A stretch of DNA of 64,000 nucleotides. Origin: Cyanidioschyzon merolae (lineage: Eukaryota). The DNA lies in assembly GCA_000091205.1 (NCBI GenBank), contig AP006501.2. One strand, given 5' to 3'. Numbering within the stretch: the first letter of the stretch is position 1; each line of letters begins with the position of its first letter. Of the stretch, positions 1-61,638 are shown one piece after another. The notes under the pieces were generated by a model. It searched no databases, was not told the origin of the DNA, and was given only the letters and a program-made list of their open reading frames with translations. A program made the position numbers and the translations under genes.

Positions 1-316
1 GCAACCATGCGCGCAAGCACTCTCTGCATCACGACTTTAATGCCTCGGGCGACATCCGGGACTGTCTGATGCATCGAGAGCATCCAGTGAGTATTACGTC
101 GAGCGAACCTTGCGGCAATCGTTTGGTACCCAGTGGGCGCATTCTGCTGCAATGCTGCGGATATCCGTCAAACAGAATACGAATCCATGGGAGAGCGGCA
201 TGTTTTGCCTTGGTGGATCACGGCACTGGTGTGGTGCTGCTCAGCAATGCGGAAAGCATTGAGCGCGGTACGGATACTCTGGGGACGATTTGCGTCCGCA
301 ATATCTGAAAGACAAT
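1..316. repeat. Direct repeat copy 1 (runs off the window start; partner at 4066-4381, ~96% identical)
   Basis: Nucleotide comparison by eye: gcaaccatgcgcgcaagcactctctgcatcacgacttta... recurs at 4066; identity stops after ...caataatgtttc. Confidence 0.85.
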
Positions 317-458
317 AATGTTTCAATACTCTAGAGTGTTGGGTGTATACGATGAAAAGGTGCTCAAACCGGTGCAGGCTTTCTTCATTTCTAGCGGATT
401 CGATCACAAGACGTTGCCACTCGTTGACATCTTTCAACATTCCGAGAACGTAATCCCA

Positions 459-1562
459 CTATGCTGCATGCACGATAGTGCGACATGGTGGCAAGTAGCC
501 TCTAATACGCAGTCGTTTCTTGCGCTCGCGAGGTCGTGCTAAATCAAGCATTCCTGGAGGCAGGTCAAGCACGGCAAGCTTCGTAAGCGATGGTGGCTGC
601 GTCTCTGCATCCGCGGCTCCTTCATGAGCAGCGATATCCATTTCCTGTACAAACGCTTCTAGAAAGGGAACCTCGAGACTCCGGTTGCCCTCGAAAAGAA
701 GCAGCTCCAGTGCGTCATGTGCACCGCCATGCTCATTTCGCAGGATCACACCCGCAACTCGTCCCAGGCAATGCTTAAACACCCACTCTCTGGTCCATAA
801 GAAATCCGCTTGCGCCTGAAGCTTTTCAAGAGTCTCTCGTAAGATAGCTGGTCGTCCAATCCACTCAGTTATAATATACTCATCGGCGCCCAGTGACTGC
901 GGTCGTTGCTCGCTTTCATGGACATAGAGACATGCACCGCGAAGTTGGCTTGCCGCATCACGATCTTCGACGCCGCGAACCCGAATAATCCATACGTTTG
1001 CTTGCGATGCCGGGCGACCATCCTGAACCCATACAGGTCGAGGATAGACCCGGTGTGCAAGTTTTATATAACGCTGTGCAGGTTCTTTGGGAAGCCGTTC
1101 CCTCGCAAAGTCAGTATTCAAACGAACCTTGCACTCACCGCGAACCCCGTGAGGCCCAGCAATGGTTCCAATCTCTATAAAACCGAAACGGGAAGGATCA
1201 TAGGCTGCTGCTGCTGCTGTCGCTTCCGATCCGATATCTGCAGCAGCAGCTGCAGTCCCGTCATCGAAGTCCAACTCGTTCGGGGTTCGCGAATGACGCC
1301 CATCGAGCGCGTCTGGATCGCTGTAAATCACCAGTGACACTAGTCTTCGACGTTGCATGGAGCTCAGGCACCTCTTCTGGTTCTCCGATTCCAACACCAC
1401 GGAACCAAATGTCAGTTTTCGGCGCTGTACAAGCTGAGTCAAGTCGCTCCGGCTCTGACACCCGATACGTCCCCCGCTTGAACAGAAGCCGTTGACGTGA
1501 CTCCAGCACACCAGCGTCCGCGCAAGTTTCCTGCTTACCAGCAAGCTATTCACGTCCCGCAT
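459..1562 (-). CDS. RimM-like 16S rRNA processing protein (PRC-barrel), probably organelle-targeted
   Basis: ORF of 367 aa; central region GTIAGPHGVRGECKV...VEDRDAASQLRGACLYV...EYIITEWIG resembles the RimM N-domain plus PRC barrel; the N-terminus looks like a transit peptide. Confidence 0.55.
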   Translation of the reverse strand: MRDVNSLLVSRKLARTLVCWSHVNGFCSSGGRIGCQSRSDLTQLVQRRKLTFGSVVLESENQKRCLSSMQRRRLVSLVIYSDPDALDGRHSRTPNELDFDDGTAAAAADIGSEATAAAAAYDPSRFGFIEIGTIAGPHGVRGECKVRLNTDFARERLPKEPAQRYIKLAHRVYPRPVWVQDGRPASQANVWIIRVRGVEDRDAASQLRGACLYVHESEQRPQSLGADEYIITEWIGRPAILRETLEKLQAQADFLWTREWVFKHCLGRVAGVILRNEHGGAHDALELLLFEGNRSLEVPFLEAFVQEMDIAAHEGAADAETQPPSLTKLAVLDLPPGMLDLARPRERKKRLRIRGYLPPCRTIVHAA

Positions 1563-1872
1563 GCAGTGTAGGTGCTAAGTCTAATGAGACCCGCCTGGTA
1601 TACGTTTGGGGCTCGCTTGTTCAGTGTTGCACCCAAACCGTTCAGAGAAACTGGGGCTACAGCGACTGGCGCTTCGCAGCAGCAATCTCGGCAAAGCGCC
1701 GCGATGGCGATACCCATCCGGGATGACTGTATACCGGTGGGTAGTGTACACGATCCTGGAACCCAAAACTTTCCTGCAGAGACGTTGCGGGTGTGCTCGA
1801 CTTCTCGCTTGACTGGCTCAGTGCCGAGGCCAGGGTCCACGCACTGCAGAAACGTCGCGGTTTCGAAGTATC

Positions 1873-2868
1873 ATGGTACCGGCGGGCACCCAGCAGGACT
1901 TTGCCGAGCAGGAAAACGTTTTGGTATACCACGGGCCCCTACTCTACGAGGCAAAAGTGCTTGAGGCCCTGGAGAGCCGTACAGAACCTGGAGCTCGTTG
2001 CTACTTGGTTCACTTCATCGGGTGGAATCGCTGCTACGACACCGTCGTCTCTCGAGAGGCAGTGCTTCCACGGACGTCAGCCAATCTGGAACTTGCTGAA
2101 CAACTTTATGTGGACTTTGTGGAAAAGCGCGGACCTGCTGCCACTGCTGCTGTTGAAGCAGCATCGCATACAACGCAGCGAATAGAGCGTGTCGCTCAGG
2201 GTAATACCGAAGCACCCCTGAGCGCGTCTACGACAGGATGTGAGTCGGCTATCTCCGCTGCTCATGTGCGTAACGATGAAGTTGTTATCGATGGTGAAGA
2301 TGATGTTGACGAGCACGTCGCCATCTATAACTGCCGGGGGCTGCGATCGATCCTAGAACACGTGGACCCAGACGATCCCCTGAGATGGTTCGAGTTGCCA
2401 ACGGTGCTGAAACGTACCGTTCTTGACGATTTCGAATACGTTTCCGAAAGTGGACGACTCTATCCTTTGCCAGCCCAAGTGACTGTGGCAGCCATCCTGC
2501 ACGCTTGGGTACGACATCGAAAGAGGACCCAGGATACGGATGCTGGTCAGATCCGAGCTCTTGCAGAGAGTCTCCAGCGCTATTTCAATGAGGCGCTGAG
2601 CAGCATGTTACTCTATGAGGATGAGCGACCGCAGTACGCAATGGTGACGACGTCGCATCCGGGAAAGCGTGCGAGTGAGATCTACGGTGGAGAGCATCTT
2701 CTTCGACTTATGGTGAAGCTGCCGTGGTTCCTCGAACAGTTGCCGATCACCAGAGACGAGGTTCGTCAGTTTGCACGCCTTTTCCAGGACCTCTGTCGCT
2801 TTTTGTTGCGCAATCATTACAGATTCTTTTCCGTTGTCGATGGAAGCGCCCTGGAGGAAAGCAGGTGA
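1873..2868 (+). CDS. MRG/chromodomain protein (MRG15/Eaf3 family)
   Basis: N-terminus VLVYHGPLLYEAKVL...YLVHFIGWN matches the MRG15 chromo barrel; C-terminal MRG domain. Confidence 0.8.
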   Translation: MVPAGTQQDFAEQENVLVYHGPLLYEAKVLEALESRTEPGARCYLVHFIGWNRCYDTVVSREAVLPRTSANLELAEQLYVDFVEKRGPAATAAVEAASHTTQRIERVAQGNTEAPLSASTTGCESAISAAHVRNDEVVIDGEDDVDEHVAIYNCRGLRSILEHVDPDDPLRWFELPTVLKRTVLDDFEYVSESGRLYPLPAQVTVAAILHAWVRHRKRTQDTDAGQIRALAESLQRYFNEALSSMLLYEDERPQYAMVTTSHPGKRASEIYGGEHLLRLMVKLPWFLEQLPITRDEVRQFARLFQDLCRFLLRNHYRFFSVVDGSALEESR

Positions 2869-4065
2869 AGTTGATTTCGTTCCGATGATGCCCGACGAGG
2901 CAGCATCGGAATCGAAGAGATCAATATGGCTGCAGCACGTGCGCTCTTCCATGCTTGGTGGCCGCATCCAGGGCAAATGCACTTCATGGAATGCAGTAGC
3001 AGCGAATAATACATCATAAAATAGGGGATACAGTATCTTTCATGCTTGACGGGGCACGGTATGCTAAAGTCTCGATTGCAGAATGTTTTCTATTCGACAG
3101 ACGTGCACCGTCAGAGAGATACCCTGAGCAAGCTCACAGTCCGCACCACCTGATCCCTTGGCCTGACTATAGTAGCCATCAGAGATGGTCGGGCAACTTT
3201 GTGATTGTTTGACTCGGAATAATGAATTCTGAAACACCTGCATCAGCACGCCCTGTTTGTTTTTTCTACGGGTATTCAAGAGGAGTGTATCTTGCACACC
3301 GGAGAAAGGTCGCCGAACGACCTTATGTCGTCACTGCTTCCTCATGAGAAAGCCCGCTTTACTAGTGCACGGCAGACATTCTCCGGACAGCCTCGCTTCA
3401 CACACGAACAAGGCTCTCTGCAAAAAGAAGCCCTTTACAGCAATGCAGACCCGTCCCGGACTCCGAGCGCCCTCGCGCCCCCATCACTGGCATCGGGGTA
3501 CGACGGGCACCAGGCGGCACACCGGCATGTAGAGTGACGGTGCAAGGACCGTTCTCACCGGCCTGCGTAGCGTATCCAGCAGAGGCGCACGCCTTCTCGG
3601 CTTTATTCAGAGGTCGTCCGTGAGCGTCCAGACGTCTCATGCGGACGCTCTTCGGCATGTATGCATGAGACTGCGCTGGGCGGTCGCCAATGGTTTCGGT
3701 TGTACGCAGACAAGACGGGTGCGTTCCCCAAACGGCTCAGTGACGTGGGAAAGGAAACGACTGAGCAGTCGCGTCGTCCGGTGGGGAGCCCCATCGAGCG
3801 GCACCCGACGCGGCGCACGAGGCCTGTGATCCCGCTTCATCGACCGGAGCTTCCCGCGGGAGCAAGCATCGACGCTGCACTGTGCCCATCGATGCGTTCA
3901 GGGCGTTATGCAAGCGGCACCAGCACGGGCACACGCTGAGGCGGGCACAGAAGAAGAGCGCGAAACATGCGCGCTCGGATGCACCGGATGGTAAGCGATA
4001 AGCAGCGTGCACGTCAGACGCAGAGCCAATCGCAAGTAAGCGGCTCGATATCGCGTGATCCAGCA

Positions 4066-5363: not shown

Positions 5364-6950
5364 TTAAGCAGAGTATGCATTGGACGTGGTGGTGCCCCCA
5401 GTTCCCGTCCAGTTGGTATGGAAGTACTGATTCTCCGGCTTATCAATTCTCTCGTAAGTGTGCGCACCGAAATAGTCCCGCTGTGCTTGCAACAAGCTCG
5501 CCGGCAGGGTTTCCGCTCGGTATCCATCGTAAAATGCGAGCGCAGTGCTTATTGCCGGACACGTGATGCCGCGACTCACAGCAAACACCACAGCGTCGCG
5601 CCAGCTCTGCTGCGCAGCAAGTAGGGCATCGCGAAAGAAGCGATACAATAGCAAATTTTCCAAATTCGGCTCATCTTGGTAAGCTTCACGAATTTTGCCC
5701 AAAAAGCGACTGCGAATGATGCAACCCCCTCGCCACATGAGGGCAATGCCTCCATAGTTGAGATTCCAGTCTTCGGCTGCGGCGGCCTCTTTCATCAGCA
5801 TATAACCTTGGGCGTAGGAAACGATTTTGCTCGCGTAGAGCGCGAGCCGCAGCTTCTCGATCATGTTCTGGCGATCCTGCTCATTCAGGGGCGGCTGCGC
5901 CGGCGGCCCCTGCAGCACCTTGCTTGCCCGCACGCGTTCTGCCTTACGAGAGGAGAGCATCCGCGAGAATACAGCTTCCGCAATTAGTGTCACAGGAACG
6001 CTGTGCTCCAGGGACGACTCGACTGTCCATCGACCGGTGCCTTTCTGCTCTGCCTTGTCGAGTATAAGCGATACCAGCGGCTTACCGGTTTCATCGTCCT
6101 TGTACTTGAGGATGTTGGCCGTTATCTCGATCAGATACGAACATAGCTCCGTTTCATTCCATGCGGCGAAAATGTCTCCGCACTCCTCGACACTGAGGCC
6201 GAGACCCCGCCGCATGACATCATATACTTCGCTGATCAACTGCATATCGCCGTATTCGATGCCGTTATGGACCATCTTAACAAAGTGACCAGCGCCGCCA
6301 GAGCCGACCCAGTCACAGCATGGCTCGCCATCCGCTCTGGCCGCTATCGCCTGGAGCACCGGGCGCAAGAGCGGCCAGGCCGCTTCCGTTCCGCCAGGCA
6401 TGAGTGACGGACCATAGCGAGCGCCCTCTTCGCCGCCCGATACACCACACCCCACAAATAGCAGCCCGTGTTCGGCGCAGTGCTTCATCCGCCGGGTGCT
6501 ATCCTGGTAGTATGAGTTGCCACCGTCAACGATGACGTCGCCGGGATCCAAGTGTGGCTGGAGCTTCTCGATAAAGTCGTCGACAGCGGGACCTGCTCTG
6601 ACAAGCAAGATCACCTTGCGGGGCTTCTTAATGAGTGCACAAAACTCTTGTATCGTTCGGGCACCAAAAATCGTTTCTCGGTCCTTCGCAACGGTTTCCA
6701 GAAACTCTTGAACCTTGGACACCGTGCGATTGAAAACGGCCACTTTGAACCCGTGATCTGCCATGTTCAGAACAAGGTTCTGACCCATCACAGCAAGACC
6801 GATAAGACCTACATCAGCAACGGCCTGATTAGGGTGATCACTGTCCAACGCTTTGTTCATGGCTTGATCGTCACCAGTTGCTACCAGTACGCACTGTTGT
6901 TCGCCAAACGATCGAGAGGCGACGTCGATGAGCGCGTCAGCATCTGGCAA
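5364..6950 (-). CDS. PGD: 6-phosphogluconate dehydrogenase (decarboxylating)
   Basis: ADVGLIGLAVMGQNLVLN, GGNSYY and a full-length match to the 6PGDH family; the true start is probably an internal Met near 6860. Confidence 0.9.
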   Translation of the reverse strand: MPDADALIDVASRSFGEQQCVLVATGDDQAMNKALDSDHPNQAVADVGLIGLAVMGQNLVLNMADHGFKVAVFNRTVSKVQEFLETVAKDRETIFGARTIQEFCALIKKPRKVILLVRAGPAVDDFIEKLQPHLDPGDVIVDGGNSYYQDSTRRMKHCAEHGLLFVGCGVSGGEEGARYGPSLMPGGTEAAWPLLRPVLQAIAARADGEPCCDWVGSGGAGHFVKMVHNGIEYGDMQLISEVYDVMRRGLGLSVEECGDIFAAWNETELCSYLIEITANILKYKDDETGKPLVSLILDKAEQKGTGRWTVESSLEHSVPVTLIAEAVFSRMLSSRKAERVRASKVLQGPPAQPPLNEQDRQNMIEKLRLALYASKIVSYAQGYMLMKEAAAAEDWNLNYGGIALMWRGGCIIRSRFLGKIREAYQDEPNLENLLLYRFFRDALLAAQQSWRDAVVFAVSRGITCPAISTALAFYDGYRAETLPASLLQAQRDYFGAHTYERIDKPENQYFHTNWTGTGGTTTSNAYSA

Positions 6951-8649
6951 TCGCGCCGACGCGCTCGAGTCGGTGACTTTTTTCGCTCACCAAACGTTTA
7001 TGTTGTACCTGGATCCCTTATCGCGGGACGAGAACTGGCTATCGGGAAAGCGCCCATCGTGATACGCCTCACCCTCAAGTTCCATTCCTTACAATTCCTT
7101 TCGGATGTACTGGTCGTTTCATGGGTTGTATCGAGCATCGAGTGCCCGTCGTGCTGCATCCACCTTGGCGCCTAGACAGCTGGTGCAGATGCACCTTAGA
7201 GACAGAACGGCTTTGCTGTACCACTGGGGGCTTCGGCTCGAGATGTGGTGCACCTGACACGGATTCGGAGTCCATCATCATGCTGGGGGCCTGGAAACTG
7301 CGCTGAAAGAGCTACCGTCTGCGGCAGCTCGAAGCGACATGCCGGGAGTCCACTGCGACCAGGGCGACGCCCAGACGCAGCCTAACTGCTGCTCCTAGTC
7401 CCAGAGTCGACTGCGTTGCGGACGAGGTGTTCAGGTCGCACCACTGCACTAGGCACAGGTAAGGGCGTGAAGCACTAGTCTTGCAGACTCGTTCGGATTG
7501 CGGGCCGTTTCGCCCTGAAGGCAAACTTTCGGAAGTATGGAAACCTTTTCGCCCTTTTAACGGCTACCGTGGAATGGGACAGGAATCGTTACATCGTTTC
7601 TCGTGAATCGTTCGTCTCTTTCCTTTTTTTCTCCGAATAGCGCGGTCGATAAGCACACCTGCGAGATCACGCAGTCACGAGAGACGACGCGCATGTCGCC
7701 GATGAAGGGAAACGCGTTTCTAACTATGCTCTGACCTATTGCCCTACCGTACATGTTGTATTCGAATTACAGGCGTAGCGGAGTACAGTTTTTTGAGTTC
7801 AATCGCGTTTGAAACGTCAAGTAAGCATATTCAAGTGATGCTGTGCGGTGTATAGGAGAAGCGTTCAATGTGCGTTCTTTCGCAGAAAAAATTCTAAAAA
7901 AAGGAAAGTTATGAGAAAGCAAGTCGACGATCGCGGAGGCGCAGTGTCGCCGGCTGCCAGAAAAAGAACGAAAAACGGTGCCGAGCCCAGGAGCACAGGC
8001 AAAGACGATGAAGCAGAAGCGGGAGGCCCTACGTCAAAGGCCGCGGGAAAGACAACAGTACGACGAGACGGTGGTGAAAGCGTACCTTCGTAAACATATC
8101 AAGGATGCCTACAAGGAAAAGTTGCGAGAGGCCATCAGAAACCGTGTCGAGTCGTACTCCACGAGTACGAAGAAGGCTTCGTCAGGACTGATGCATATGG
8201 TGAACGAGATGCACGACAACGCGACGGACACCAGAACAGTCGAGGTTCCGGGGGAATTTTTCAACAAGACCTTTGCTCGTCACCTGATGGTCGGCACAGG
8301 GGAGCCGTCGACAAACAATGAGCGAGTGCACGCCTTCCACGAAAACTTCGCGGGATTCGGCTTCGAAGGTGCATCGATACAAGGGTTACGGGGATATTCA
8401 CATCTACGGGCCGATCGAGTACCTCGCGAACCTGAGGAACCATTTGACCATGAACCTCGAACGTTTCATGATACGCGCCGTGTTTGCGCTCTACCGGGGC
8501 ATCTCTCGCGGGGAAGAGATGGGCCATCTTCGCTGCCATCACCAACGATCGTCAGCATGAACAGGCAATAGAATTTGTCGACAAGATGACATCACGCAGG
8601 AGCATGAATGAAGCATATGTGATCGGTGCAGCTATTCAAGAGCGTCGTG

Positions 8650-8777
8650 GTAACACGGAGGTAGGGGGTTGGATAGATACTTCACCTCGCACTGAAAAAA
8701 TATCACAAAAAGTAAGAAAAGTAAAATGCGCATAATCGGAGAACGCTGGCCCAAGTAAACGTTTTGTCCATGGAAAA
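8650..8777 (-). mobile_element. ~130-bp MITE-like repeat, here called R2, nested inside copy A
   Basis: Absent from the orthologous position in copy B. Flanked by 12-bp direct repeats aagagcgtcgtg (8638-8649) and aagagcatcgtg (8778-8789). Homologous to 20355-20469 and 39066-39250. Confidence 0.7.
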
Positions 8778-9271
8778 AAGAGCATCGTGAAGTCTTGGGG
8801 CTGGCCAACCCGACAGAAGACGTGTCAGATATGAAAAAAGTGAGAAAAGATGGTACCCCCGCATCCTGCGCTACTTCGTGTTTCTGGACCGAGAACTCGA
8901 ACGCAAGGCGGAGATGGTGCTGGGTGTGTGGAAAAATGAAGAGTCGCGGAGACGGAACGCTTTCCCAATGGGGAAGTGCTTCAACGTGGTTCCAATGAGC
9001 AACATCAAGTCACATTTTGTGACTATCGACCAAGGCGTCCACTACGGCAACATGAGTGAGATCAGTCCGGTGTTCGGTGTCAGCAGGGAGGAGTTCACCG
9101 GTGAAAATCGGGAGACGTACCGGAAGAGTCTCTTCGGTTTCAAACGTCTCAAAGTGAGCAAGCAGAAGGTATTCACGGGGATGATCGGAACCGATGGCGT
9201 AGCCACGTGTGTACGCTATCGGAGGTTTGAAGGCGGATTGTCCAGTTCGGCCTTCGATATCGCCCGTAACG

Positions 9272-9421
9272 AAGCATGAAGAAAACAGGGAGGAGGATCC
9301 TGCCACACAGAAAGTGCAGGATAACGACTTTGTCGTTGACGCGACGAAGCGTGAAGATGAGATGGAGGCGGGTCCTGCTACGCAGAAAGTGCAGGATAAC
9401 GACTTTGTCGTTAGTGCGGAT
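9272..9421 (+). repeat. Tandem 66-nt repeat (two units) encoding an acidic [19 protein letters not shown] motif immediately N-terminal of RuvC-I
   Basis: [20 protein letters not shown] / [18 protein letters not shown] in A; four units at the same place in copy B. Confidence 0.7.
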
Positions 9422-10425
9422 CCCGGGAACACAAATATCATAACCATCGCAGTACCCAAGCGTGCGGAAGATGGTATCAACGGCAACCTACGTCAGACGG
9501 CCCTGCGAGTTTTGAGGTTCTCGAGAGCGGGATGCTATCGAGAATCCGGTATGATCAATGTGAGGAAGAAAATTGAGACACGGAATGCAGGAATGAAGGA
9601 TCTCCTGGAAGCTTTGCGCGGAGTAACGAGCAGAGGAGCAGGCTTTGAAGCTTTTCCGATATTCATGGAAGGTCGCGTTGCTCATTGGGATGCGCTGCTG
9701 GAGGAGTATACAAAGCCCCGGTGGGCTCGTCTGCGTATGAATCTGTACGGTGGTAAGCAGCGGGCATTCGCCAAATTTTTCAGTCAGTTGAGTGCCTTGA
9801 AGGAGGACGAGAGCCAGAGGCTGGTAGTGGCATACGGAGCAGGGCGTCCACAAAAGGGTGCACACCAGCTCCGTCGACGAGAACGTACAAAGCGTGTGCA
9901 CGGCGCTTTGTAATGATACCGATTGATGAGCTCCGAACGTCCTATACACACCACGAACTGGGGTACACACTTGAGACGGTCGACATGGAAAAGTGCCAGC
10001 GGAGTCCTGAAGATATGAAAAAGTATGGAGCGCTAACGGAGGAGCAAATGGACAGGAGGGCGAAAGTTCGTGGACTACTCGCATTAGTAAGTACAATCAA
10101 TGGCAAGAAACGCATGGAAATTGTTAACCGCGACTTTAACGCGGCTACCAATATAAGGAGGTGCGCGGTGATGGAGAGAAGACCTCCGTACTTGACAAGA
10201 GGGAATTTCGTAGGGAAACCTCTCGAGGTGGAATTATACGAGAAAAAGTTGAAACCGGTAGTAGGTGGCCGGTCCAAAAAGAATGTGAGGCATCTGCACG
10301 TCGACTGGAGGCGCATTGTCGAAAGCGCGCCGCGCTCCCGTTAAGCGCCAGTGCGCAGAAGAATTTCCTTCGGTTTCGAGGTATATTGAGAAGGGTCGCG
10401 TTCGTTCTGTGTAGAAAGCTGGACT

Positions 10426-13371
10426 GTGGCGACTCTCTCGGTCAGTTTTAAAGTTATGCATCGAGTACGCTCCCGTGCGTCGTTCTCTAACCGCTCTAGT
10501 GAAGACCTCGTTCAGGTGCCGCCGGGTCTTGAGTTGGACGAAGAGGAGCTCGCGCTCCTGGAGCAACAGCGCCAGCTCGAGAACGCCTTAGCACGACACG
10601 AGCACGGCAATGTTCCCCGATCTCTTTCTCGACGCATCCTGGACTATATGGTCCAGAGCAGCGACGGCGCTGATCTGAGAACGAATCAGTCAATTCTGGG
10701 CACGGAGTCGAGGGCGTTTCCGGAATGGAGCACGTTTCAGCGCCCGGTAGCACGGAAGGGTCCACGATACGACGAGCTTCGACTGGGCGAGCTACTTGTA
10801 CGACGTGGTCACCCGTTGCCGTACGGCGTGAGCCTGAGCCCGGAGGGCACGAATTTCGCTATTTTCACAGATGAGGAGGAGCATGTGGCCCTGATCCTTT
10901 ATCCGGCCAAGTCGCGGCGTCAGCTAAGGCACGAGCGTTTGCAGTCTGCAGCTGCTGCATCTATCGAAAGCGCCACGCCTGTGACCTCGAATACTGAGAA
11001 GTCCGCACCCAAGACAGACTCTCACAGTGGCGAGCATGTCATGGACAAACAAACCGAAACTGCACCACCCAGCGACGCATCGCAAGAGACGGGTGCGAGA
11101 GAAAGTTCCGAGAGCACGCCCGCTAGGACAGAGTCTGCTGCTTCTGCGCTGTTGCGCAGGAATCGGGCGCCGTTTATCGTTCGCGAGAGCAGCACGGACG
11201 ACGAGGACCGCTTTGAAGACGTCCGTTCGAACGCTGGTAGCACCGGCGGAAGCACACCGCGAGCGATGAGCGAAGGCCTCGAAGATCCCAGTAACAACGA
11301 TGCGGTGATGACCACGAGCGCGCTCCAGAGCAGCACAAGGCAAGCAAAGTCGGTACTGGCTACCGCACAAATTTTACCGCATCAGAGCGGACTGCTCTTC
11401 CCGATGGATTGGTTTTTACCGGTCCCAAGTATTGACGACGCAAAACCTCTAATTATCGAACTTGATCCTGTCATCCATCGAACAGGCCATGTTTGGCACG
11501 TACAGATCGCCCCAAATGTGGAACATTATGCCTATGCATGGCGCATCGGCGATCGACCAACGCGCTGGGGCTCAAACATCGTCCTCGATCCATACGCTAA
11601 ATGCGTTTTCTCTCCACCGAGTGCGGATTTCAACCGCCCACCGGGACCTTATCGGCCGATTTGTGGTGTTCCCGCTATTGGAGAACTCGATTTCGACTGG
11701 GATGGCGTCCTTCCTCCACGGTATCCGTTTAAGGACTTGATCATCTATGAGCTGCATGTGAGAGGTCTCACAAAGCAGACTACTTCGCCCTATGCGGGTA
11801 CCTACCTGGGCGTCATTGAAAAGATACCGTACTTGAAGCAACTCGGTATCAATGCAGTTGAATTGATGCCTTGCGCCGAATTCAACGAGACCGAATGGGA
11901 CATGCGAAATCCGAGCACCGGCGAACGATTGTGTCAGTTCTGGGGCTACTCACCGATCTCTTTTTTTGCGCCCATGAATCGTTATGCGATGCAGGGCTTT
12001 ACCTCGGCTGTGCGGGAATTCAAAACCATGGTTCGCGAGCTGCATCGCCACGGCATCGAGGTCATCCTTGATGTGGTTTTCAACCACACCGGGGAGTTTG
12101 GAGACGACGGACCGCCGCCCCTCTTTTACCACTTCAAAGGCCTCGCGCTGAGTACTTATTATATTCTGGATAGGAAGAATCAGTTTGCAAACTATAGCGG
12201 GTGTGGCAATTCGCTCAGTGCGAATCACGTTGTCACTGCGGAGTTCATCCATGAGTGTGTTCGGTACTGGGCTCTGGAGATGGGTGTCGACGGCTTTCGC
12301 TTTGACTTGGCTGCAGTGATGTGTCGAGACCCGCAAGGTCAGCCCATGGCGAGTCCGCCGGTAATCGAGCGGCTCAGCAAAGATCCCTGCTTACGGCACT
12401 TGAAACTGATCGCAGAACCATGGGATCTGGGTCAGTACCTGGTCGGACATTTTCCACATTACGGGTGCTGGGCGGAGTGGAATGGTCGCTTTCGAGACAC
12501 GGTACGGCGTTTCATTAAGGGAGATCCGCATCTGATCGGTGACTTTGCAACCCGTCTATGCGGCTCAGAGGATCTCTACGCGAACGGACGACGTCCGTGG
12601 CACTCCATCAACTTTGTCACCGCTCATGATGGATTCACCCTCTACGACCTGGTTTCCTACGCCGAAAAACATAACTGGGATAATGGTGAGGAAAACCAGG
12701 ACGGTGAAAGCCACAACAATAGCTGGAACTGCGGCTTCGAAGGCGACGGGACCCCGAATCCGAACATTTTCTTCCTGCGGCAGAAGCAGATGCGCAACTT
12801 TCTGGTAGCGTTGCTGATATCGACGGGTACCCCAATGGTGCTTATGGGTGATGAGTATGGCCATACACGTCGCGGAAATAATAACGCCTGGTGCCAGGAC
12901 AACGAGCTGAACTACATGGATTGGGATAAGGTTGCTCGCGATGAACGGGGTCTGGTTCGGTTCACGCGCCTCATGATCCTGTTCCGGCGGGTGAACACCT
13001 TCCTCTGTCGTCAGAACTTCGTCACCAGACACGACGTGAGCTGGATCCATGCCGACTGGAGTAGTGCCTACAACTTCCTGGTGATGAGAATCATCGATCC
13101 CGGAAACGATGACTTGCTGGTGGGGTTTAATGCCGGTCCCGAGCGGCGCACGGTCACTGTACCACCGCTGTCGAGCGATCGCCAGTGGCTCCGCATCGTG
13201 GACACCAATCTGGCTCCGCCGTTGGATTTCTGTAACGGAGATAATCCAACCAAGATCTACGGCACCTACGTCATGCAACCCTGGAGTTCGATTATTCTCC
13301 AGAGCCACCGCCGCAGCGTGCTCATCCAGAGCTTGGAAGAACACCTTCGCGGACGCGAAGCAGCCTCCTAG
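10426..13371 (+). CDS. Isoamylase-type glycogen/starch debranching enzyme (GH13)
   Basis: 981-aa ORF with YELHVRGLT, VILDVVFNHTGE, GVDGFRFDLAAVM, WAEWNGRFRD, FVTAHDGFTLYDLVSY and MGDEYGHTRRGNNNAWCQDN. Confidence 0.9.
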   Translation: MATLSVSFKVMHRVRSRASFSNRSSEDLVQVPPGLELDEEELALLEQQRQLENALARHEHGNVPRSLSRRILDYMVQSSDGADLRTNQSILGTESRAFPEWSTFQRPVARKGPRYDELRLGELLVRRGHPLPYGVSLSPEGTNFAIFTDEEEHVALILYPAKSRRQLRHERLQSAAAASIESATPVTSNTEKSAPKTDSHSGEHVMDKQTETAPPSDASQETGARESSESTPARTESAASALLRRNRAPFIVRESSTDDEDRFEDVRSNAGSTGGSTPRAMSEGLEDPSNNDAVMTTSALQSSTRQAKSVLATAQILPHQSGLLFPMDWFLPVPSIDDAKPLIIELDPVIHRTGHVWHVQIAPNVEHYAYAWRIGDRPTRWGSNIVLDPYAKCVFSPPSADFNRPPGPYRPICGVPAIGELDFDWDGVLPPRYPFKDLIIYELHVRGLTKQTTSPYAGTYLGVIEKIPYLKQLGINAVELMPCAEFNETEWDMRNPSTGERLCQFWGYSPISFFAPMNRYAMQGFTSAVREFKTMVRELHRHGIEVILDVVFNHTGEFGDDGPPPLFYHFKGLALSTYYILDRKNQFANYSGCGNSLSANHVVTAEFIHECVRYWALEMGVDGFRFDLAAVMCRDPQGQPMASPPVIERLSKDPCLRHLKLIAEPWDLGQYLVGHFPHYGCWAEWNGRFRDTVRRFIKGDPHLIGDFATRLCGSEDLYANGRRPWHSINFVTAHDGFTLYDLVSYAEKHNWDNGEENQDGESHNNSWNCGFEGDGTPNPNIFFLRQKQMRNFLVALLISTGTPMVLMGDEYGHTRRGNNNAWCQDNELNYMDWDKVARDERGLVRFTRLMILFRRVNTFLCRQNFVTRHDVSWIHADWSSAYNFLVMRIIDPGNDDLLVGFNAGPERRTVTVPPLSSDRQWLRIVDTNLAPPLDFCNGDNPTKIYGTYVMQPWSSIILQSHRRSVLIQSLEEHLRGREAAS

Positions 13372-19557: not shown

Positions 19558-19813
19558 ACAGAATGTTTCCATGGACTAGGGATACCAGATTGCGGGATGG
19601 ATATTGGCATTCGGGAGTGTGCCCATCATGATGCAACCTATGCTCAAGTTCCATGATGCATACTTTTTCTCGGGGGTGTACTGGTCGATTTGAATGTTGT
19701 ATCATGCGGCGAGTACCTGCCTTGCTGCAGCCGCTATACCGCCTATACCGCTGGTGTGGATGCAACCTAGAGACAGAACAGTTTTGCTGTATCGCAGAGG
19801 GCTTCGACTCGAG
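19558..19813. repeat. Inverted repeat, left arm (partner 24333-24578, ~95% identical)
   Basis: Reverse-complement identity seen directly; the spurious ORFs 19556-19765(-) and 24372-24782(+) translate identically. Confidence 0.85.
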
Positions 19814-19831
19814 AATGTAAACTTAACCTTC

Positions 19832-20545
19832 TCAAAGGCGCCTCTCGGCCTTTTTCGACCGGCCACCTGCTATCGGATTGAGTTTCTTTCTGTGCATATC
19901 GAGCCTGAGAGGCTGGCCCACAAAGCTGAATCGCATCAGCTCCTGGGGTCTCGTATCCAATACCGCACATGGTCTGATTTTGATGACGACGTTGAAGCCT
20001 CGATGCACAAACTCCATGCGTTTCTTTCCTCTGATGGAACGCAAAAGTGCTAGGATTCCGAGAACTCGCGACCTCTCTCCGATTCCAATCGCGCCATCGT
20101 CCCACAGGGCAAACTCCTTTTCTCGCCCATCTCCCTGTTCTTCTTCTTCTTCGTCACTTGCCCTTCTTCGCTCGATCGTCAGCGATGAGAGGTGTTTTCC
20201 CCTTTTTTCGTCTGCCAGCAATAACCACCAACCAGGATTCCCGACTTTTATGTCCATATCCTTCCCTTAGATTGTCACCTTCGTCAAAATGAACGCACTT
20301 TGCGTATATCTGCTATGAGCGGAGAATAGACCTTTGATGACACGCACTTGCAGGTTTTTTCATGGACAAAACGTTTACCTAGGCCAGCGTTCTCCGATTA
20401 TGCGCATTTTTCTTTTCTTACTTTTTTTGTGTTATTTTTCCAGTGCGCGGGAAAGTATCTGTCGAACCGCACGCACTTGCAGGTGGAACGCAATTGAGTT
20501 GAACGGTCATGAGCGCAGCACCTGGACGCCGCTTCCGCTGCGCTC
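19832..20545 (-). mobile_element. Copy D of the Fanzor-like family: internal-deletion derivative (5' ~250 bp joined to 3' ~300 bp) with a nested R2 insertion
   Basis: 5' region homologous to A 7790-7960 (..VGNPGWW.. versus VGDPGGP / DDRGGAV). 3' region KKRMEFVHRGFNVVIKIRPCAVL...GGRSKKAERRL. 3' terminus ggccggtcgaaaaaggccgagaggcgcct at ~19843. Confidence 0.7.
20355..20469 (+). mobile_element. R2 MITE-like repeat inserted into the 5' region of copy D
   Basis: Flanked by a perfect 14-bp direct repeat cacgcacttgcagg (20341-20354 and 20470-20483). Fanzor-like homology resumes on the far side. Confidence 0.7.
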
Positions 20546-23879: not shown

Positions 23880-24332
23880 TCGCCATGCGCTGTGGAGTCG
23901 TCACAGAGAAGGACAGGCACTGCCCATTTACTAATTGCGACTGTTCCAAATGAAGACAAGTCGCCAGGAACTAGCAACTAGATAACATTTCGTTCCACCT
24001 TCATGGTAAGCGTTGCAAAAGGGGAACTTTTTCCGTATTTTCGAAAGATTACCTTCGAGGCGGAAAGTCCCTCGCGCCAGACGAGTCTGCAGGGTTGGTG
24101 CTTGAAGCTATTCCCAGCGGCGGGTACAGTGCCGAGACCTCATTAGCTCGTCCACAACGCAGTTATTTTGGGACTTGGGGCGCCAAGGCTGCATCCAGGT
24201 ATTGGCTTGGTCGCAGTGGTCCCCTAACATATCGGTCCGTGCTGTCGCAAGCAGTATTTCTGGCTGCGCAGCTTGCAGGCTCCCAAATTGATGTTGAGTC
24301 CTGATTCTGTGACTTGTGAACCATGACGCGAG

Positions 24333-24578
24333 TCGAAGCCCTCTGCGATACAGCAAAACTGTTCTGTCTCCATGTTGCATCCACACCAGCGGTATAGGCG
24401 GTATAGCGGCTGCAGCAAGGCAGGTACTCGGCGCATGATACAACATTCAAATCGACCAGTACACCCCCGAGAAAAAGTATGCATCATGGAACTTGAAAGT
24501 AGGTTGCATCATGATGGGCACACTCCCGAATGCCAATATCCATCCCGCAATCTGGTATCCCTACTCCATGGAAACATT
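24333..24578. repeat. Inverted repeat, right arm (partner 19558-19813)
   Basis: Reverse complement of 19558-19813. Confidence 0.85.
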
Positions 24579-25258
24579 CTGTCAACCAAAAGAATCGTCG
24601 TGCGGTCGATTGGCGCGCTGGGGCGCTACGAAGCACGCATCGCATGTCTTGCGGGATCGAAGCGTCCAGCCAGGAATCCCCTCAGTGCGCACTTGACATC
24701 GGCAGCGGAGGCAAAAACCACCGCTCCATTCAAATCCAAAGCTCCCTGGTTCCATCACTCACCACCAAATAACCCGCCATGAAGCATCCCGATACCTATT
24801 GCGTGCCTCGTGGTCCCGTTGCATCGTTTGCAGATGCAGGATCGAGACATCGACCGAGATTCCCCGGCGGATGCGCGATTGCTCTCAGAAACCACATGAT
24901 AGAGCACCGCTCCATCCGAAACACCTCAAGTTCCGCAAACCCTGGGCCAGTACGCAACAACGGACACTGGGATTCGTTCCGTTCAACAACATGGGTCCTT
25001 CCAGGTATCGCGCACGCCTCAGGCGCTCGCTGTGACACAGTGCATGGGCCTGCACCACGCGGTTGCGCGGCGGTTGCACGCGCACCGAGGCGCCCCGACG
25101 AGCGCCGACTCGGCGATTCTGGATGCGTGCGCTGGTGTCGCATTCTGCAGCGATGCATCCGTGCCCTGGGCCTCGAGACACGTGTCCGGCATACAACATG
25201 CATGCACGCATGCATGTTGCACAGCGCCAAGTTTGGCATAGCGCGGGAGCTGCTCTGA

Positions 25259-31149: not shown

Positions 31150-31680
31150 GTGGAGAGCAAATTCGGACTGAATCGTAGGGATGCCTCCCAGCCGTTTTTG
31201 ACCGGCTGCCATATTCTCGATCCAGTTTTTGTCCAGGTAAACTTCGAGCCAGGCAGACTGCCCCACAAAGTTACATCGCGTCAGCTACGCGGGTTTCGTC
31301 ATTAGTACCATAAATCGTCTCATGTGGATGATGTTCTTCAAGTCTAGGATCACAAACTCCATGCGTTCGTTGCATCTAGTTGAACTCACTAGTCCAAAGA
31401 TTCCTCGAACTCGAGCGCGCAGTGCCATTTGGTGCTCTGTCAGCTCTGCGCGCTTTTCTGTCGCAGAATCGCTCCGCCGGCTCTTCTCCATTTCGTTCCT
31501 CTGAAGTATACGCCCCAGTTCATCCATTAGATTTTCTCTTTCGTCAAGCGAACATACTTCCTCACGCTCTTAGGTCAGGAGTTTCCCAGAGGATCGAAAG
31601 TCTTGCAAAAGAAAGACGAAATGTGCCCTGGTGTGTCACCGTGTGCTGAAAGCTTCAGCGATTCGCCCAGTGTAGCGATC
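31150..31680 (-). mobile_element. Copy E: Fanzor-like 3'-region fragment fused to an unrelated ~130-bp segment that is also found in copy G
   Basis: DELG..MEK..ELTEHQMALRARVRG..NERMEFVILDL..RRFMVL..LTRCNFVGQ. Upstream block gtcaccgtgtgctgaa.g.ttcagcgattcgccc (31633-31672) recurs at 47159-47197. Confidence 0.6.
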
Positions 31681-35279: not shown

Positions 35280-35785
35280 TAGAGACGATAGCGTGTGTGT
35301 CTGTACACCGATTTGCAGACGCCCCCCCCCCCCCCCGGGTTTTGCTCTAAGGGCCCCATGCCATCGGCTTTAGTTTCTTCTCGTGCACCTCGAGCCGGAG
35401 AGGATGTCCAACAAAGCTTGATCGCCTCAGCTCCTCGGGTCTTGTGTTCAGCACCGCACTTCTCCGGATATGGATCGCAGCGTTGAAGTCTCGGTTCACG
35501 AACTCCATGCATGTATTGCCGCTGTGGTTGAATTCACCAATGCAAGGGTTGATAGGACTCGTTCCCTCTGTACCAGTACAGTCTCGTCATCTACCCGTCA
35601 GGCAAACATCTTTTCTGACATATCTCCCCTCTTCGTATGCTCATTCTTCCTGCTCTTCTTCGCTTCATAGTCGACGAGAAGAGGATATTTTTGAAGCATC
35701 CAGCGATGATGACGGCCCTGCGGGATCCCCGACTTGCAAGTCCATACCTTTTCCTTGGATTTTATTTGCACTTTAAATCAACGCA
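35280..35785 (-). mobile_element. Copy F: internal-deletion derivative of the Fanzor-like family; contains a C16 tract
   Basis: 5' region aaaatccaaggaaaaggta...gtcggggatcccgcagggcc homologous to H and A; 3' region is diverged RuvC-III-like (antisense frame IAALKSRFTNSMHVLP); poly-C at 35322-35338. Confidence 0.55.
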
Positions 35786-42492: not shown

Positions 42493-43011
42493 CTACTGAA
42501 CGGAACACCAGCCCCGCGAAAAATACGGTTTAACAACCTCCGCGGTCGTCGCCGGTTGCGCCACCGTGCCAGTGCTGGAGCCACTGGTTCGTGCTGCTGC
42601 TGCTGCTGCTGCTGCTGCTTCCTTGCTGTGGGGCAGCTTTGACCCCTTGTCCTTCTTCTTCGGTTTGGAGGCCCCGGCTCCGGTGCTCTTTGGTGCTTTC
42701 TGTGACTTGGGCTTTTTCTTCTCTATTTTGTCCGGACGACGCTGCGCCGTAGCTTTGCTTTTCCGCGACAACTTGGACTCCCGTTCTAGTTTCAACGGTA
42801 TGGGCTCCCGTTTCGCTGCGCGGGCGGCTGCGGCAGCCGCGGCGGCGGCACGAGCCGGTGTTCGTCGCGGTGTGGGTAGTGGCGCCTCAGCCGTCGTGGG
42901 GCCGGCGGGTGCCGCCCTCGAAGGCAGCGCCGCCGTTGCCGCTTTTTTGTGCGGAATTTTTTGAGATTTTTTCTCTTCAGACTTGGTGCTTGATTTCATT
43001 TTCACGGTCAT
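42493..43011 (-). CDS. Lys/Ala-rich basic protein (histone-H1-like composition)
   Basis: Start taken at MTVKMKSS (43011); the longer N-terminal extension in the ORF track reads through tandem repeats and is an artefact. Confidence 0.35.
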   Translation of the reverse strand: MTVKMKSSTKSEEKKSQKIPHKKAATAALPSRAAPAGPTTAEAPLPTPRRTPARAAAAAAAAARAAKREPIPLKLERESKLSRKSKATAQRRPDKIEKKKPKSQKAPKSTGAGASKPKKKDKGSKLPHSKEAAAAAAAAARTSGSSTGTVAQPATTAEVVKPYFSRGWCSVQ

Positions 43012-43075
43012 AGAGGGTTGAGAGGGCCTTTCGTTATAGAAGAACGCGAAAACGTGGACCAAGCGCGCGACGTAA

Positions 43076-43197
43076 CGCATTCGTGCGTGCGCGCGCGAAT
43101 TCGTGCTTGTGCGCGCGCATTCGTGCGTGTGTGCGCGCTCTCGTGCGTGTGTGTGCGCGACGTAACGCATTCGTGCGTGTGTGCGCGCCTAGCGGCG
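43076..43197. repeat. ~6 tandem copies of a ~20-bp unit (attcgtgcgtgtgtgcgcgc) abutting the 3' terminus of copy B
   Basis: Seen directly: cattcgtgcgtgcgcgcgcg aattcgtgcttgtgcgcgcg cattcgtgcgtgtgtgcgcg ctctcgtgcgtgtgtgtgcgcg acgtaacgcattcgtgcgtgtgtgcgcg. Confidence 0.8.
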
Positions 43198-43204
43198 ACA
43201 TCTT

Positions 43205-45797
43205 TTTCATTGACAAAACGTCTCCAACTGACGTGCAGGCGCCTCCCAGTCTTTTCGGACCGGCCACCCACTACTGCTTCCAAATTCTTCTCATATAGTT
43301 CCACTTTGAGAGGTTGTCCAACAAAGTTCTCCCGTGTCAGCTCTGGAGGTCTATTCTCCAGCACAGGACATCTCCGTATATTGATAGCGGCGTTAAAGTC
43401 TCGATTCACAAACTCCATACGCTTCTTGCCGTCATTGGTTGTACTCACTAATGCAAGGAGTCCACGAACGTTCGCCCTCCTTTTCATTTGCTCCTCCGTC
43501 AGCGGTCCGTACTTTGCTATTTCCTCAGCGCTCCGCTGACACGTTTCCATCCCCACTCGCTGAAGTGTACATCCCAGTTCATGGTGTGTATACGATGTTC
43601 GAAACTCATCTATCGGTATCGTAACGAAACGCCGTGCACACTCCTTGTACGTTCTTGTCGTCGGAGCTGGCGTAGTTTTTTTTGGGTCTTCCAACACCCT
43701 GCCCTATACGCTACTGAGAGCCTCTGACTTTCATCCTCTATGAGGGCACTCAACTGATTGAAAAAGTTGGCAAACGCCCGCTGGTTACCACAATACAGAT
43801 TCATTCGCAAACGAGCCCATCTGGGCTTTGTATACTCCTCCGGCAGCGCATCCCAATGGGCAAAACGAACTTCCATGAATTTCCGGAAAGCTTCAAAGTC
43901 CGCTCCTCGGCTGGTCACCTCGCTCAAAGCTTCCAGGTGATCCTTCATTCCTGAATTCTACGTACAAATTTTCTTCCTCGCATTCATTATACCGGATTCT
44001 CGATTGTATCTCGCTCTCGAGAACCTCAAAAGGCGCATGTCTTTCTGACGTAAGTTGCCGTCAGTACCATCTTCCGCACGCTGCGGTGCTGCGATGGTGA
44101 TGATATTTGTGTTTCCGGGGTCAGCGCCAACGACAAAGTCGTTCTCATGCACTTTCTGCACCGCAGGACCCGCCTCCTTCTTTTCTTCATGCTTCGCCGC
44201 GTCAACCATAAAGTCGTTATTCTCCATCTCCTGCGCCGAAGGATCCGCCTTCTTCTCATCTTCATCCTTCGCCACGTCAACGACAAGGTCGTTATCCTCC
44301 ACCTCCTGCGTAGCAGGATGCTCCTCTTTGTTTTCTTCATCCTTCGTCACGTCAACGACAAACTCGGTATCCTCCACCTCCTGCATCACAGGATCCTCCT
44401 CTTTGTTTTCTTCATCCTTCGTGACGGGCGCGGCCGAGGGCGGGACTGGCCCATCTGTCTTCAACCGCCGGTGGTGTACACACATGGCTACCCCATCGAT
44501 TTCGATCAACCTAGTGAATACCTTTTGTTTTGCTCGAATTGAGAAGTTTGAAATCGAAGATATTCCCCCAGTACGTCTCACGGTTTTCACCGGGGAACTC
44601 TGTCTTCCTTACACCGAACTCCGGACTGATCTGCCTCATGATGCCGTGAAGGACTGCGGAGTCGATAGTCACAAAATGTGACTTGATGTTGCACAACGGA
44701 ACCACGTTGAAGCGCTTCCCCATTAGGGCAGCCCTCCGTCTCTACCACTCTTCATTTGTCTCTTCACTCAGCTTCATCTCTGCCTTGTGTTCGAGCTCTC
44801 GGTCGAGAAACACAAAATATCGCAGGAGGAGGCGATAGTATCTTTCCTTGTCTTTTTTTCAACTCTGATATCTTGTCTGTTGGATTCGCCAGCCCCAGTA
44901 CCGCACGATGCTCTTGTTTAGCCACACGGATTACAGAAGCTTCATTCGTGCTCTCGTTTGGCGCCTTCTTATCGACGAATTCGACCTCATCTTCATGCTT
45001 GCGATCGTCCGTGATGCCGTTGGTAATCGCCCGTACGCCTTTGCGATAGATGGCCCGGTACGGCGCACACACGGCGCGTATCATGAAACGTTCGAGGCTC
45101 ATCGTCAATTGGTTCTCCAGGTTCGTGAGGTACTTCATCGCCCCGTATGTGTAAATATTTCCGTCACCGCTGTATCGATTATCCTCGAAGCTGTAAAAGG
45201 GATGTTTTTCATGGAGGGCATCCACTAGCACATTTTCCTTCCGCGCTTCTGCTGTACCAAGCATCAGCTGTCGAATAAAGGTCTTGTCCAAGAAATCGTC
45301 CGGAATCTCGACCGTTTCAATATGCGCCACGTCTTCGTACATCTGCCTCGCCAAATGCATCACTCCTGACGACGCCTTGACAATGCTCTTGGAGTACTAG
45401 TCGACAAGTTTTTCGATAGCGTCTCGCAACTTTTCCGTGTACGGATTCTTGATATGTTTAAGAAGACCAGCTTTCACCACCATCTCGTCGTACAGTCGTC
45501 TTTCTTGCCGCCTTCGACGTAGGGCCTCCCGTTTTCGGTTCCTCTTCTCTTCTTTTTCTTCTGGACTCGGCACTGTTTTTTGTTTTTTTTCTAGCAGCCG
45601 GCGACCCTGGGCCTCCAGGATCGTGGACTTGCTTTTTCAAGACTTTCCTTTTCTAGTTTTTTTGGAAAAGAACGCTCCTTGAACCCTTCTGTTATACGCT
45701 ACGAAAAACACTTGACTAGACTTGTTTGAGGGTTGAAACACAAATGAACTGAAAACTTTATTTTTGTTCGAATCCTACGCGAATACAACTTTTACAG
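43205..45797 (-). mobile_element. Copy B of the Fanzor-like RuvC nuclease element, ~2.6 kb, frameshifted
   Basis: ORFs 45458-45640, 44764-45363, 44511-44723, 43958-44590, 43610-43948 and 43008-43697 on the minus strand. Ruv[20 protein letters not shown] (Asp ~44121). RuvC-III EFVNRDFNAAINIRRC (Asp ~43399). 5' terminus gttgtattcg shared with A. Confidence 0.8.
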
Positions 45798-46585
45798 CTG
45801 AACATCACGCTAGAGATCAGGATCGCGTTTTCCTTCAACGGCGGCATGCGCATCCTGTCTCATGCTTGCCTGATCTCCCAGGAACGCTCATTTAGCGCAC
45901 TGCGTGCACCGCGCGAGACGCCTCACCGATCGATGAAGGACACGTGTCCGACACCCCGCCTTGGCACATGCGTGTTCGCATCGCGCTGGAGCGAAAATCA
46001 AGTGTCCTAGATCGTGAACTCACGTAGAACGATCTCTTGCTGTAGGCTCTGTCGCTGGTGCCGACGCTACTGCCCATCGCAGTACCGTCCTGACATACAA
46101 GGGGATGCAGGGGCCTGGTACGATACCCGTCGACGCGTCTATCAAACGCGTAGCGTTCTCTGCGGCTTACGCTTGTGCGGATGAGATATGCATCACTCTA
46201 CTCATTAGAAATTTCGTTACATTTATTGATCGTAAACAAACAAGGTACGGTAGTGTTCCCCAACACGGATACAAGTTTATTTCATTTGCTTGTTATACAT
46301 GCCGCACGGACGCTGGAATAAGGAACTAACCTGAATTTTGCTTCCACCCGGCGTCACGGGCTGGAACTGATGGCGCTTCAAGTCATTTCCATGCTGCTGT
46401 CGTTGTTCAACTTATGGTGCCTGCATCGTCCTCCGGATCCGGTGATCTTGGCCGAGGCATACCACACATATAGCGTCCAGATCTGCCACGACGTTTGAAC
46501 ATTGCATCTCGCCTGGCATGATCGACACGCTTGAGAAAAGCGCATACTGTATTCTGGTCTACTCTATCAGATTATATACAATTGC

Positions 46586-47200
46586 CTAACCCGTACATCG
46601 ACGACCGCAGACCAACAACAAACGCCTTCCAAAAGAAAAACGTTTTCGCCAGCCGTGTACAGTAGTGGCGCTCTGCGCGCCCCAGACGAAACGTCTCAAT
46701 CTACCAGTCCGCAGACGCCTCTCAGGCTTTGTTGAACGGCCGACTGGTATCGATCTCAGCTTCTCCTTGTACAATTCGAGACTGGGAGGCTGTCCCACAC
46801 CAAAGTTGACATGCCACAGCGCCACGGATCTCGTCTTCAGAACCGCACATCCCCTGATATTGCTAGCAGTGTTAAAGTCTCGGTTAACAAACACCATGCG
46901 TTTATTGCCTCTTCTTGAACTTGTCCATGCAAGGAGTCGTCGAAGTCATGCCCTCACTGCCATTTAGTGCTCTATCAGCTCTCCGTGCTTTTCTGTCGCC
47001 GAAGCGCCCCGCTGGCTCTTCTCTATCTCATTCTTCTGAAGTGTACACCCGGGCTCATCCCTTGATTTTTCAAAATGAAGAAACTTGTTTATATCTTTAA
47101 GTTGGAACCCTCCCGGAGGGATAAGCACTTGCGGGGAAAACATGACATGAGCCCCGTAATGTCACCGTGTGCTGAACGTTTCAGCGATTCGCCCCGCAGA
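46586..47200 (-). mobile_element. Copy G: Fanzor-like 3' fragment plus the extension shared with E
   Basis: MVFVNRDFNTASNIRGCAVL...LELYKEKLRSIPVGRSTKPERRL; upstream gtcaccgtgtgctgaacgtttcagcgattcgccc. Confidence 0.6.
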
Positions 47201-58349: not shown

Positions 58350-58440
58350 TTGGGTGGCGCTCGATTCGCGCGCGATGAGGCACCCATCGTTCCATCTACT
58401 TCCAAGTTCCATAACCCATACTTCTTCTCGGATATTCTTG
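58350..58440 (+). repeat. Partial R2 repeat (3' part)
   Basis: gcgcgatgaggcacccatcg...ccatacttcttctcggatattcttg homologous to 39160-39230. Confidence 0.45.
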
Positions 58441-61550: not shown

Positions 61551-61638
61551 GGAGCCTTCTCGTCCAGGGCGGGTTTTTCGCCACTACTGTATACCGCTGG
61601 CGACGTTCGACTTTAGAACGGCGTTTACTTTTGGTGAA

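Follow-up and report, generated by a model that had tools for sequence, protein, structure and literature searches.

An intergenic locus of Cyanidioschyzon merolae matches a decayed copy of the Fanzor1-bearing element CMe-1A

What is the broken, nuclease-like gene that lies between two ordinary genes of the red alga Cyanidioschyzon merolae, and does anything in it still work? We analyzed a window of 64,000 nucleotides, the whole stretch taken from contig AP006501.2 (GenBank assembly GCA_000091205.1), numbered from its first letter. A first-pass annotation, made from the letters alone, had placed at 7755-10320 a degenerate element encoding a TnpB/Fanzor-like RuvC nuclease. We find that positions 6984-10395 on the plus strand are almost certainly one decayed copy of CMe-1A, a multi-copy element of ~3.2 kb from C. 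merolae 10D that carries a single Fanzor1 gene, CMe-1.

CMe-1A is already known; it was described in 2013, and the genome studied here is that of the original description (Bao & Jurka, 2013; Mob DNA 4:12; PMC3627910). According to that paper, the consensus is 3169 bp long and there are ~150 copies in C. merolae, each ~80% identical to the consensus; the element has no terminal inverted repeats, its target-site duplications are undetermined, and its classification is given as 'unknown'. The 5' 635 bp of CMe-1A correspond to a second element, TE-N2_CMe, and the encoded protein, CMe-1, has 734 amino acids; one Fanzor1 family is described there for the C. merolae genome (PMC3627910). Apart from this paper, a literature search on Fanzor in red algae turned up nothing of relevance.

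Further copies within the window, together with related loci taken from hot-spring-type Joint Genome Institute (JGI) metagenomes (n = 80; L numbers below), pointed to a repeat family, and we compared the locus with the CMe-1A consensus from the supplement of the 2013 paper. In a global alignment, consensus 1-3169 and window 6984-10395 are 83.3% identical at the nucleotide level over 3149 aligned columns; local matches are colinear and cover window 6989-8649, 8778-9343, and 9345-10329 at 81-85% identity. Because this alignment is colinear from end to end, we take the locus to be one copy of the published element. The element therefore begins ~770 bp upstream of the span first proposed for it, and the part equivalent to the open reading frame (ORF) is 7911-10323. 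By the global alignment, 6984-7628 (+) is the TE-N2_CMe region (consensus 1-638), of which a solo copy lies at 23969-24584 (-), and 7629-7910 (+) is an untranslated leader before the Fanzor1 ORF (consensus 639-905), shared from consensus 671 onward with a second CMe-1-type copy in the window, copy B. The 5' 900 bp of the element contain no ORF longer than ~70 amino acids. At the other end, 10324-10395 (+) aligns weakly to consensus 3111-3169 and represents a decayed remnant of the ~100-nt non-coding tail. No terminal inverted repeat was evident on inspection of the element ends.

The Fanzor1 (CMe-1) pseudogene occupies 7911-10323 (+), with its ATG at 7911, and corresponds to consensus ORF 906-3110. 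It survives as six overlapping plus-strand ORF pieces in three frames, within ~7850-10344 (7848-8093, 7978-8571, 8318-8560/8484-8735, 8878-9279, 9209-9913, and 9913-10344), that stitch into a Fanzor/TnpB-like protein. That such segments could be stitched had been proposed before, and this is not a product of chance: the C-terminal stitch has 214 homologues among public metagenome proteins (E down to 4e-136; mostly 60-75% identical, one 98%), and the pieces are colinear with the published consensus.

The gene is indeed degenerate. Compared with the consensus ORF it carries seven frameshifting indels, at ~7965, 8372, 8509, 8637 (+140 bp), 8840, 9222, and 9844, as well as in-frame changes (one 75-bp repeat unit gained and two 3-bp losses), and the consensus stop codon TAG has become GAA at 10321-10323. 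Once the frame is corrected, the translation contains no nonsense codons and shares 75% identity with the 734-amino-acid CMe-1 consensus. The first frameshift bears on a basic N-terminus that had been read as resembling a nuclear localization signal: the peptide RKRTKNG was read across the frameshift and does not stand, while the in-frame sequence, ARKKRKTVPSP, is still basic.

All of the RuvC motifs quoted in the first-pass annotation are present, including KKRMEIVNRDFNAATNIRRC, and the catalytic triad that it proposed to look for is there. D431, E603, and D672 of CMe-1 are all kept in the frame-corrected translation, with the RuvC-I aspartate codon (ADPGN) at 9419-9421 (+), the RuvC-II glutamate codon (IDELRTS) at 9928-9930 (+), and the RuvC-III aspartate codon (NRDFNAA) at 10132-10134 (+). 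None of the three D-E-D residues varies when 40 diverse family members are aligned (alignment D180, E352, and D421), and the profile alignments to Fanzor1 proteins described below run through the motifs around all three.

Could this nevertheless be a functional Fanzor gene, with the frameshifts explained as introns, programmed frameshifts, or assembly errors? The absence of nonsense codons and the retention of all three catalytic codons speak for this, as does the report that some family members are intact (Bao & Jurka, PMC3627910). Against it stand seven independent frame changes, one of which, the 140-bp gain, comes from a foreign 130-nt element and a 10-bp duplication. Introns are very rare in C. 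merolae genes, and the neighboring genes here are single uninterrupted ORFs. A 99%-identical copy, assembled independently from a metagenome (L001, protein P0035), has the frameshift at ~9844 as well, and its gene is likewise called in pieces; this recurrence indicates that the lesions are real mutations and not sequencing errors. The copy at 6984-10395 has also lost its stop codon and its 3' hairpin, and there is apparently no 10D protein annotated at the locus: by accession count, the ORFs of the three neighboring genes named below use up BAM82813-BAM82815, so that none seems to be left for the relic. We consider a functional gene here very improbable. The CMe-1A copy at 6984-10395 is a non-functional pseudogene relic, and it is inert because its ORF is broken and its 3' tail has decayed.

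We next consider the protein family to which CMe-1 belongs. Searched with a profile, a set of 1.84 billion representative proteins contained 1456 relatives (E<=0.001), of which many are 600-700 amino acids long. A profile of 40 sequences, comprising distant relatives and CMe-1-type proteins, matches three solved Fanzor1 proteins in the PDB: PpFz1 from Parasitella parasitica (9cf0, E=1.8e-20), SpuFz1 from Spizellomyces punctatus (8gkh, E=1.8e-11), and GtFz1 from Guillardia theta (9cer, E=3.2e-6). The alignments span DPG(R) in RuvC-I, DEFRT in RuvC-II, and NRD..AA.N in RuvC-III. The same profile finds no TnpB or Cas12 chains at E<=10. Sub-threshold matches to PF07282 (Cas12f1-like TNB) occur at the expected C-terminal position in 3 of 10 distant relatives. 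Together these sequence comparisons support the assignment of the CMe-1 family to Fanzor1, the eukaryotic TnpB homologues with a RuvC nuclease domain, in agreement with the literature; the earlier call, made from motifs, was accurate. A weak precomputed match of some relatives to PF26935 (DUF8286) was not reproduced with a local copy of Pfam.

Several observations weigh against the Fanzor1 assignment. The stitched protein pieces by themselves have no Pfam or PDB match, and a shallow profile of 15 sequences has no PDB match; the link to Fanzor1 thus depended on the broader profile, and of the profile check proposed for the stitched protein only the family-level version gives the expected answer. 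An AlphaFold2 model built on a shallow alignment of 35 sequences was too poor for use (predicted local distance difference test score 42.9, predicted template modeling score 0.24). The cysteines of the zinc ribbon (CxxC...CxxC) are not present in CMe-1, which reads THHELGC...EKC...LLALVSTT; at the position of CPKC...C..C in PpFz1, CMe-1 has TSYTHHELGCTLQRVEMEKCQ...LLALVSTT, which may be a His/Cys variant of the ribbon. In the 2013 paper the zinc-finger-like domain is a shared feature of Fanzor proteins and not a strict criterion (PMC3627910).

A different origin would be a bacterial tnpB of the IS200/IS605 or IS607 type, brought in by recent horizontal transfer or as contamination; the gene would then not be a eukaryotic Fanzor. 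The RuvC motifs are of TnpB type, and the weak PF07282 matches fit this origin as well. But among solved proteins the best matches are Fanzor1 nucleases of eukaryotes, nuclear genes of C. merolae flank the locus on both sides, and the family is multi-copy, ~80% identical to its consensus, and found both in C. merolae and in uncultured relatives known from metagenome assemblies. Moreover, the 734-amino-acid protein carries a long extension at its N-terminus, and there is no TnpA nearby. A bacterial origin of this kind is in our judgment even less probable than a functional gene, and the preference for a Fanzor-type element over a bacterial IS605 voiced in the first-pass annotation holds, as does its observation that no Y1 (TnpA) ORF is adjacent: there is no transposase ORF at the locus.

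The genomic surroundings are those of the C. merolae nucleus. All eight of the window ORFs compared agree residue for residue with proteins of C. merolae 10D (BAM82811 to BAM82834). The relic fills the intergenic space between two divergently oriented genes, for 6-phosphogluconate dehydrogenase at 5367-6857 (-) and an isoamylase-like protein at 10426-13368 (+), the latter followed by a gene for a WD40 protein. These are the immediate neighbors; the first-pass annotation had named PWP2, MAT1, TIM22, and NDUFS8 as flanking genes, and the eukaryotic nuclear context that it drew from them is borne out. The 99%-identical copy in another strain (L001:1-4661, JGI sample 3300050366) has its left end joined to orthologues of CMS184C and Arp6 (BAM82802/3), genes located in 10D about eight genes upstream of where the window starts. 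The difference between the strains is a deletion or rearrangement whose breakpoint falls at the left terminus of the element, where the match of L001 begins at window 6980.

If the protein is a Fanzor1, what of its RNA? In characterized Fanzor and TnpB systems, the nuclease binds an omega-RNA that is transcribed from the end of the transposon, with the guide located past the right end (Saito, 2023; PMC10432273). In the CMe-1A family, ~100 nt past the stop codon are conserved in most copies (L002-L082; window 61562-61640 and 46594-46693 (-)). This tail consists of a short GGCG...CGCC stem, the motif ACTACTGTACAC, and a long terminal hairpin ending in ...GGTG. Most related copies extend 10-25 nt past the published 3' end, which completes the long hairpin. 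The hairpin exists in two sequence versions, both of which pair, with the cores CGTTCGA-CTT-TCGAACG and ACGTTTTTC-TTTT-GAAAGACGT. RNAalifold was uninformative on the mixed alignment of 3' tails because the two versions align out of register, and each copy was folded separately instead.

Across 37 distinct copies, the terminal hairpin has on average 17.5 bp and 3.8 G-U pairs. The mean folding energy is -20.7 kcal/mol for the sense strand versus -13.6 for the antisense, and in 36 of the 37 the sense strand gives the more stable fold (Wilcoxon p=1.7e-7); this greater stability of the sense strand fits an element that acts as RNA, or as top-strand DNA. The fold z-score of the tail lies between -3.3 and -7.8 in ten other copies and is -0.76 in the copy at 6984-10395, where the terminal hairpin has decayed. 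We propose the conserved ~100-nt tail with its hairpin as a candidate omega-RNA scaffold. By analogy with characterized Fanzor1 and TnpB, the 3' end of the element would give rise to a non-coding omega-RNA, and intact CMe-1 members would bind this RNA and cut guide-matching DNA beside a short motif. Two considerations pull the other way: Rfam has no match in window 6900-10500, and the hairpin may have another role, as a signal for transposition or as a terminator.

At the left end of the element, a variable pyrimidine tract (ACTTTTTT) lies at 6974-6983 (+), directly before the consensus start, and reads as an A-rich tail on the minus strand. Such a T/C-rich tract of 8-12 nt is found at all 18 of the 18 distinct left ends, and the published consensus begins right after it. 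The likely meaning of such a tail is best seen in two small elements that have inserted secondarily. The 140-bp gain at 8637 consists of a foreign 130-nt element (8650-8779, 3' end ...GTAAACGTTTTGTCCATGGAAAAAA) and a 10-bp target-site duplication, which together span 8640-8789 (+). The duplicated copies, GAGCGTCGTG at 8640-8649 and GAGCATCGTG at 8780-8789, are 9/10 identical; where they lie, GAGCACCGTG occurs just once in the consensus. A sister insertion of 115 nt, at window 20355-20469 (-), is flanked by a perfect 14-bp duplication (20341-20483 including the duplications). The two elements have a common 3' end, ...GTAAACGTTTTGTCCATG(G)AAAAAA, and differ in their 5' end points; judged by these features, they bear a retroposon signature. 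Read as its reverse complement (TTTTTTCGATGACAAAACGTTTAC), the left end of CMe-1A and TE-N2_CMe closely resembles the A-tailed 3' end of the small elements. With this resemblance and the pyrimidine tract, TE-N2_CMe looks like a retroposon that lies antisense to the Fanzor gene. One may go on to propose that CMe-1A combines two kinds of end, the left being the A-tail of an antisense TE-N2_CMe retroposon and the right a sense hairpin maintained by compensatory change as an omega-RNA scaffold; we offer this combination tentatively and think it rather unlikely to be correct as a whole.

Two other classes of element were considered for these termini. A Helitron-like element, suggested by the 3' hairpin, fits them only imperfectly, and no Rep gene was seen; an IS200/605-like element with direct hairpins at both ends likewise fits them only imperfectly, and no Y1 gene was seen.

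The other copies in the window differ in which parts they retain. Copy B, a frameshifted CMe-1-type copy at 43212-45875 (-), matches consensus 671-3107 at 84-90% and has a different 5' region that extends to ~46540. Its right end is replaced just past the stop codon by a low-complexity (CGCACA/CACG)n tract (window 42493-43210), which yields long alanine- and arginine-rich ORFs on both strands. A second type of copy (type B) lacks TE-N2 and has another 5' region (window 45876-46700 (-); L009, L014, L025, L031, L058, and L062). This region opens with a module like the right end, made of the last ~40 nt of the ORF and both hairpins, so that the second-type element has similar hairpin modules at both ends in direct orientation. 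In the window, the position of that module in copy B is taken by a longer, diverged 3' fragment, fragment D, at 46623-47058 (-); it matches consensus 2737-3169 at 72%, lies directly next to the 5' region of copy B, and still has the terminal hairpin. Fragment C, another 3' end, at 60963-61640 (+), matches consensus 2506-3169 at 87% and has a hairpin of the first sequence type. The solo TE-N2_CMe-like element at 23969-24584 (-) matches consensus 4-615 at 78%.

Small relics of TE-N2 type and of the Fanzor C-terminus (amino acids ~612-734 only, 36-60% identity) lie at 19558-20075, 31180-31523, 35338-35546, and 58393-59097. Fragment D and the relic at 31180-31523 start at one and the same point of the consensus, and their upstream sequences are similar; these likenesses point to a derivative family reduced to the 3' end. 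Among 82 related loci no fully intact copy was seen. The longest open frames there have 778 codons (L010:3183-5516) and 772 codons (L042:831-3146), and both are damaged: in one, the start is not in frame and a stop comes too early; in the other, the N-terminus is not in frame.

The family also varies within the gene. A 75-bp tandem repeat (25 amino acids, acidic) was detected by Tandem Repeats Finder at 9269-9412 (+), between the WED-like part and RuvC-I, with 1.9 units compared to one in the consensus. The tandem number of this unit ranges from 1 in the consensus to at least 5 in some relatives (proteins P0001-P0019, L010, and L017). The coding strand of the pseudogene is purine-rich, and we take the long antisense ORFs at 9013-9486 and 9491-10096 to be shadow ORFs for this reason; neither has a Pfam match.

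With these copies in hand, we can weigh a mechanism of spread in which CMe-1A copies were retroposed by target-primed reverse transcription from the antisense TE-N2 A-tail, with the Fanzor gene as a passenger. Besides the likeness of the left-end reverse complement to the 3' end of the small elements, the varied 5' truncation points of those elements and their target duplications of 10 and 14 bp argue for it, as does the tract at every left end, where homology between copies stops exactly. A search of ten full-length and two solo TE-N2 copies gave no convincing target-site duplications, only weak and non-significant similarities, so that the old full-length copies have no clear flanking duplications to match those of the small elements. 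Type-B copies have no TE-N2 part and start with a module like the right end, and the sharp right end with its conserved sense-strand hairpin is left unexplained by an antisense RNA intermediate. Spread by retroposition is a doubtful, though possible, explanation, and it bears on how CMe-1A moved; the locus as a decayed CMe-1A copy is the reading that we retain.

How does this copy compare with known systems? With the published CMe-1A it shares the genome, colinearity at 83%, the TE-N2_CMe 5' part, and the single ORF (75% at the amino acid level); it differs by its seven frameshifts, the 130-nt insertion, the extra 75-bp unit, the mutated stop, and the decayed 3' end. The solved Fanzor1 proteins (9cf0, 8gkh, and 9cer) resemble the family over the REC/WED-like region and RuvC-I, II, and III in the profile match, and CMe-1 has the same DPG, DEFRT(S/T), and NRD..A..N motifs; both are eukaryotic and transposon-borne with a non-coding region at the 3' end. 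The similarity is, however, remote and at the profile level only (E=1e-20 to 1e-6), and the zinc-ribbon CxxC pairs are missing from CMe-1, in which the acidic 25-amino-acid repeat precedes RuvC-I. Bacterial TnpB elements of the IS200/IS605 group, such as ISDra2, have in common with CMe-1A the RuvC D-E-D core, the lack of terminal inverted repeats, and a conserved structured 3' end that overlaps or abuts the end of the ORF, and type-B copies share with them direct-orientation hairpin modules at both ends. In contrast to these bacterial elements, CMe-1 has no above-threshold Pfam OrfB/TnpB match and no Y1 TnpA, is about twice as long, and resides in a eukaryotic nucleus.

The locus itself carries little weight: it is one relic among ~150 in a family that was catalogued from the same genome in 2013. 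What goes beyond that description are details of the family: a fuller 3' end with a hairpin that is more stable in the sense strand, a left end like a retroposon tail, and dated secondary insertions with duplications. These details could aid tests of whether Fanzor1 from C. merolae has RNA-guided nuclease activity, or of how the element moved. If CMe-1A does join an antisense retroposon tail to a sense omega-RNA scaffold, the Fanzor1 gene of a thermoacidophilic alga would have spread by hitch-hiking on retroposition and not by a DNA transposase, and intact copies, as distinct from the relic at 6984-10395, would be a naturally heat-tolerant Fanzor1/omega-RNA pair.

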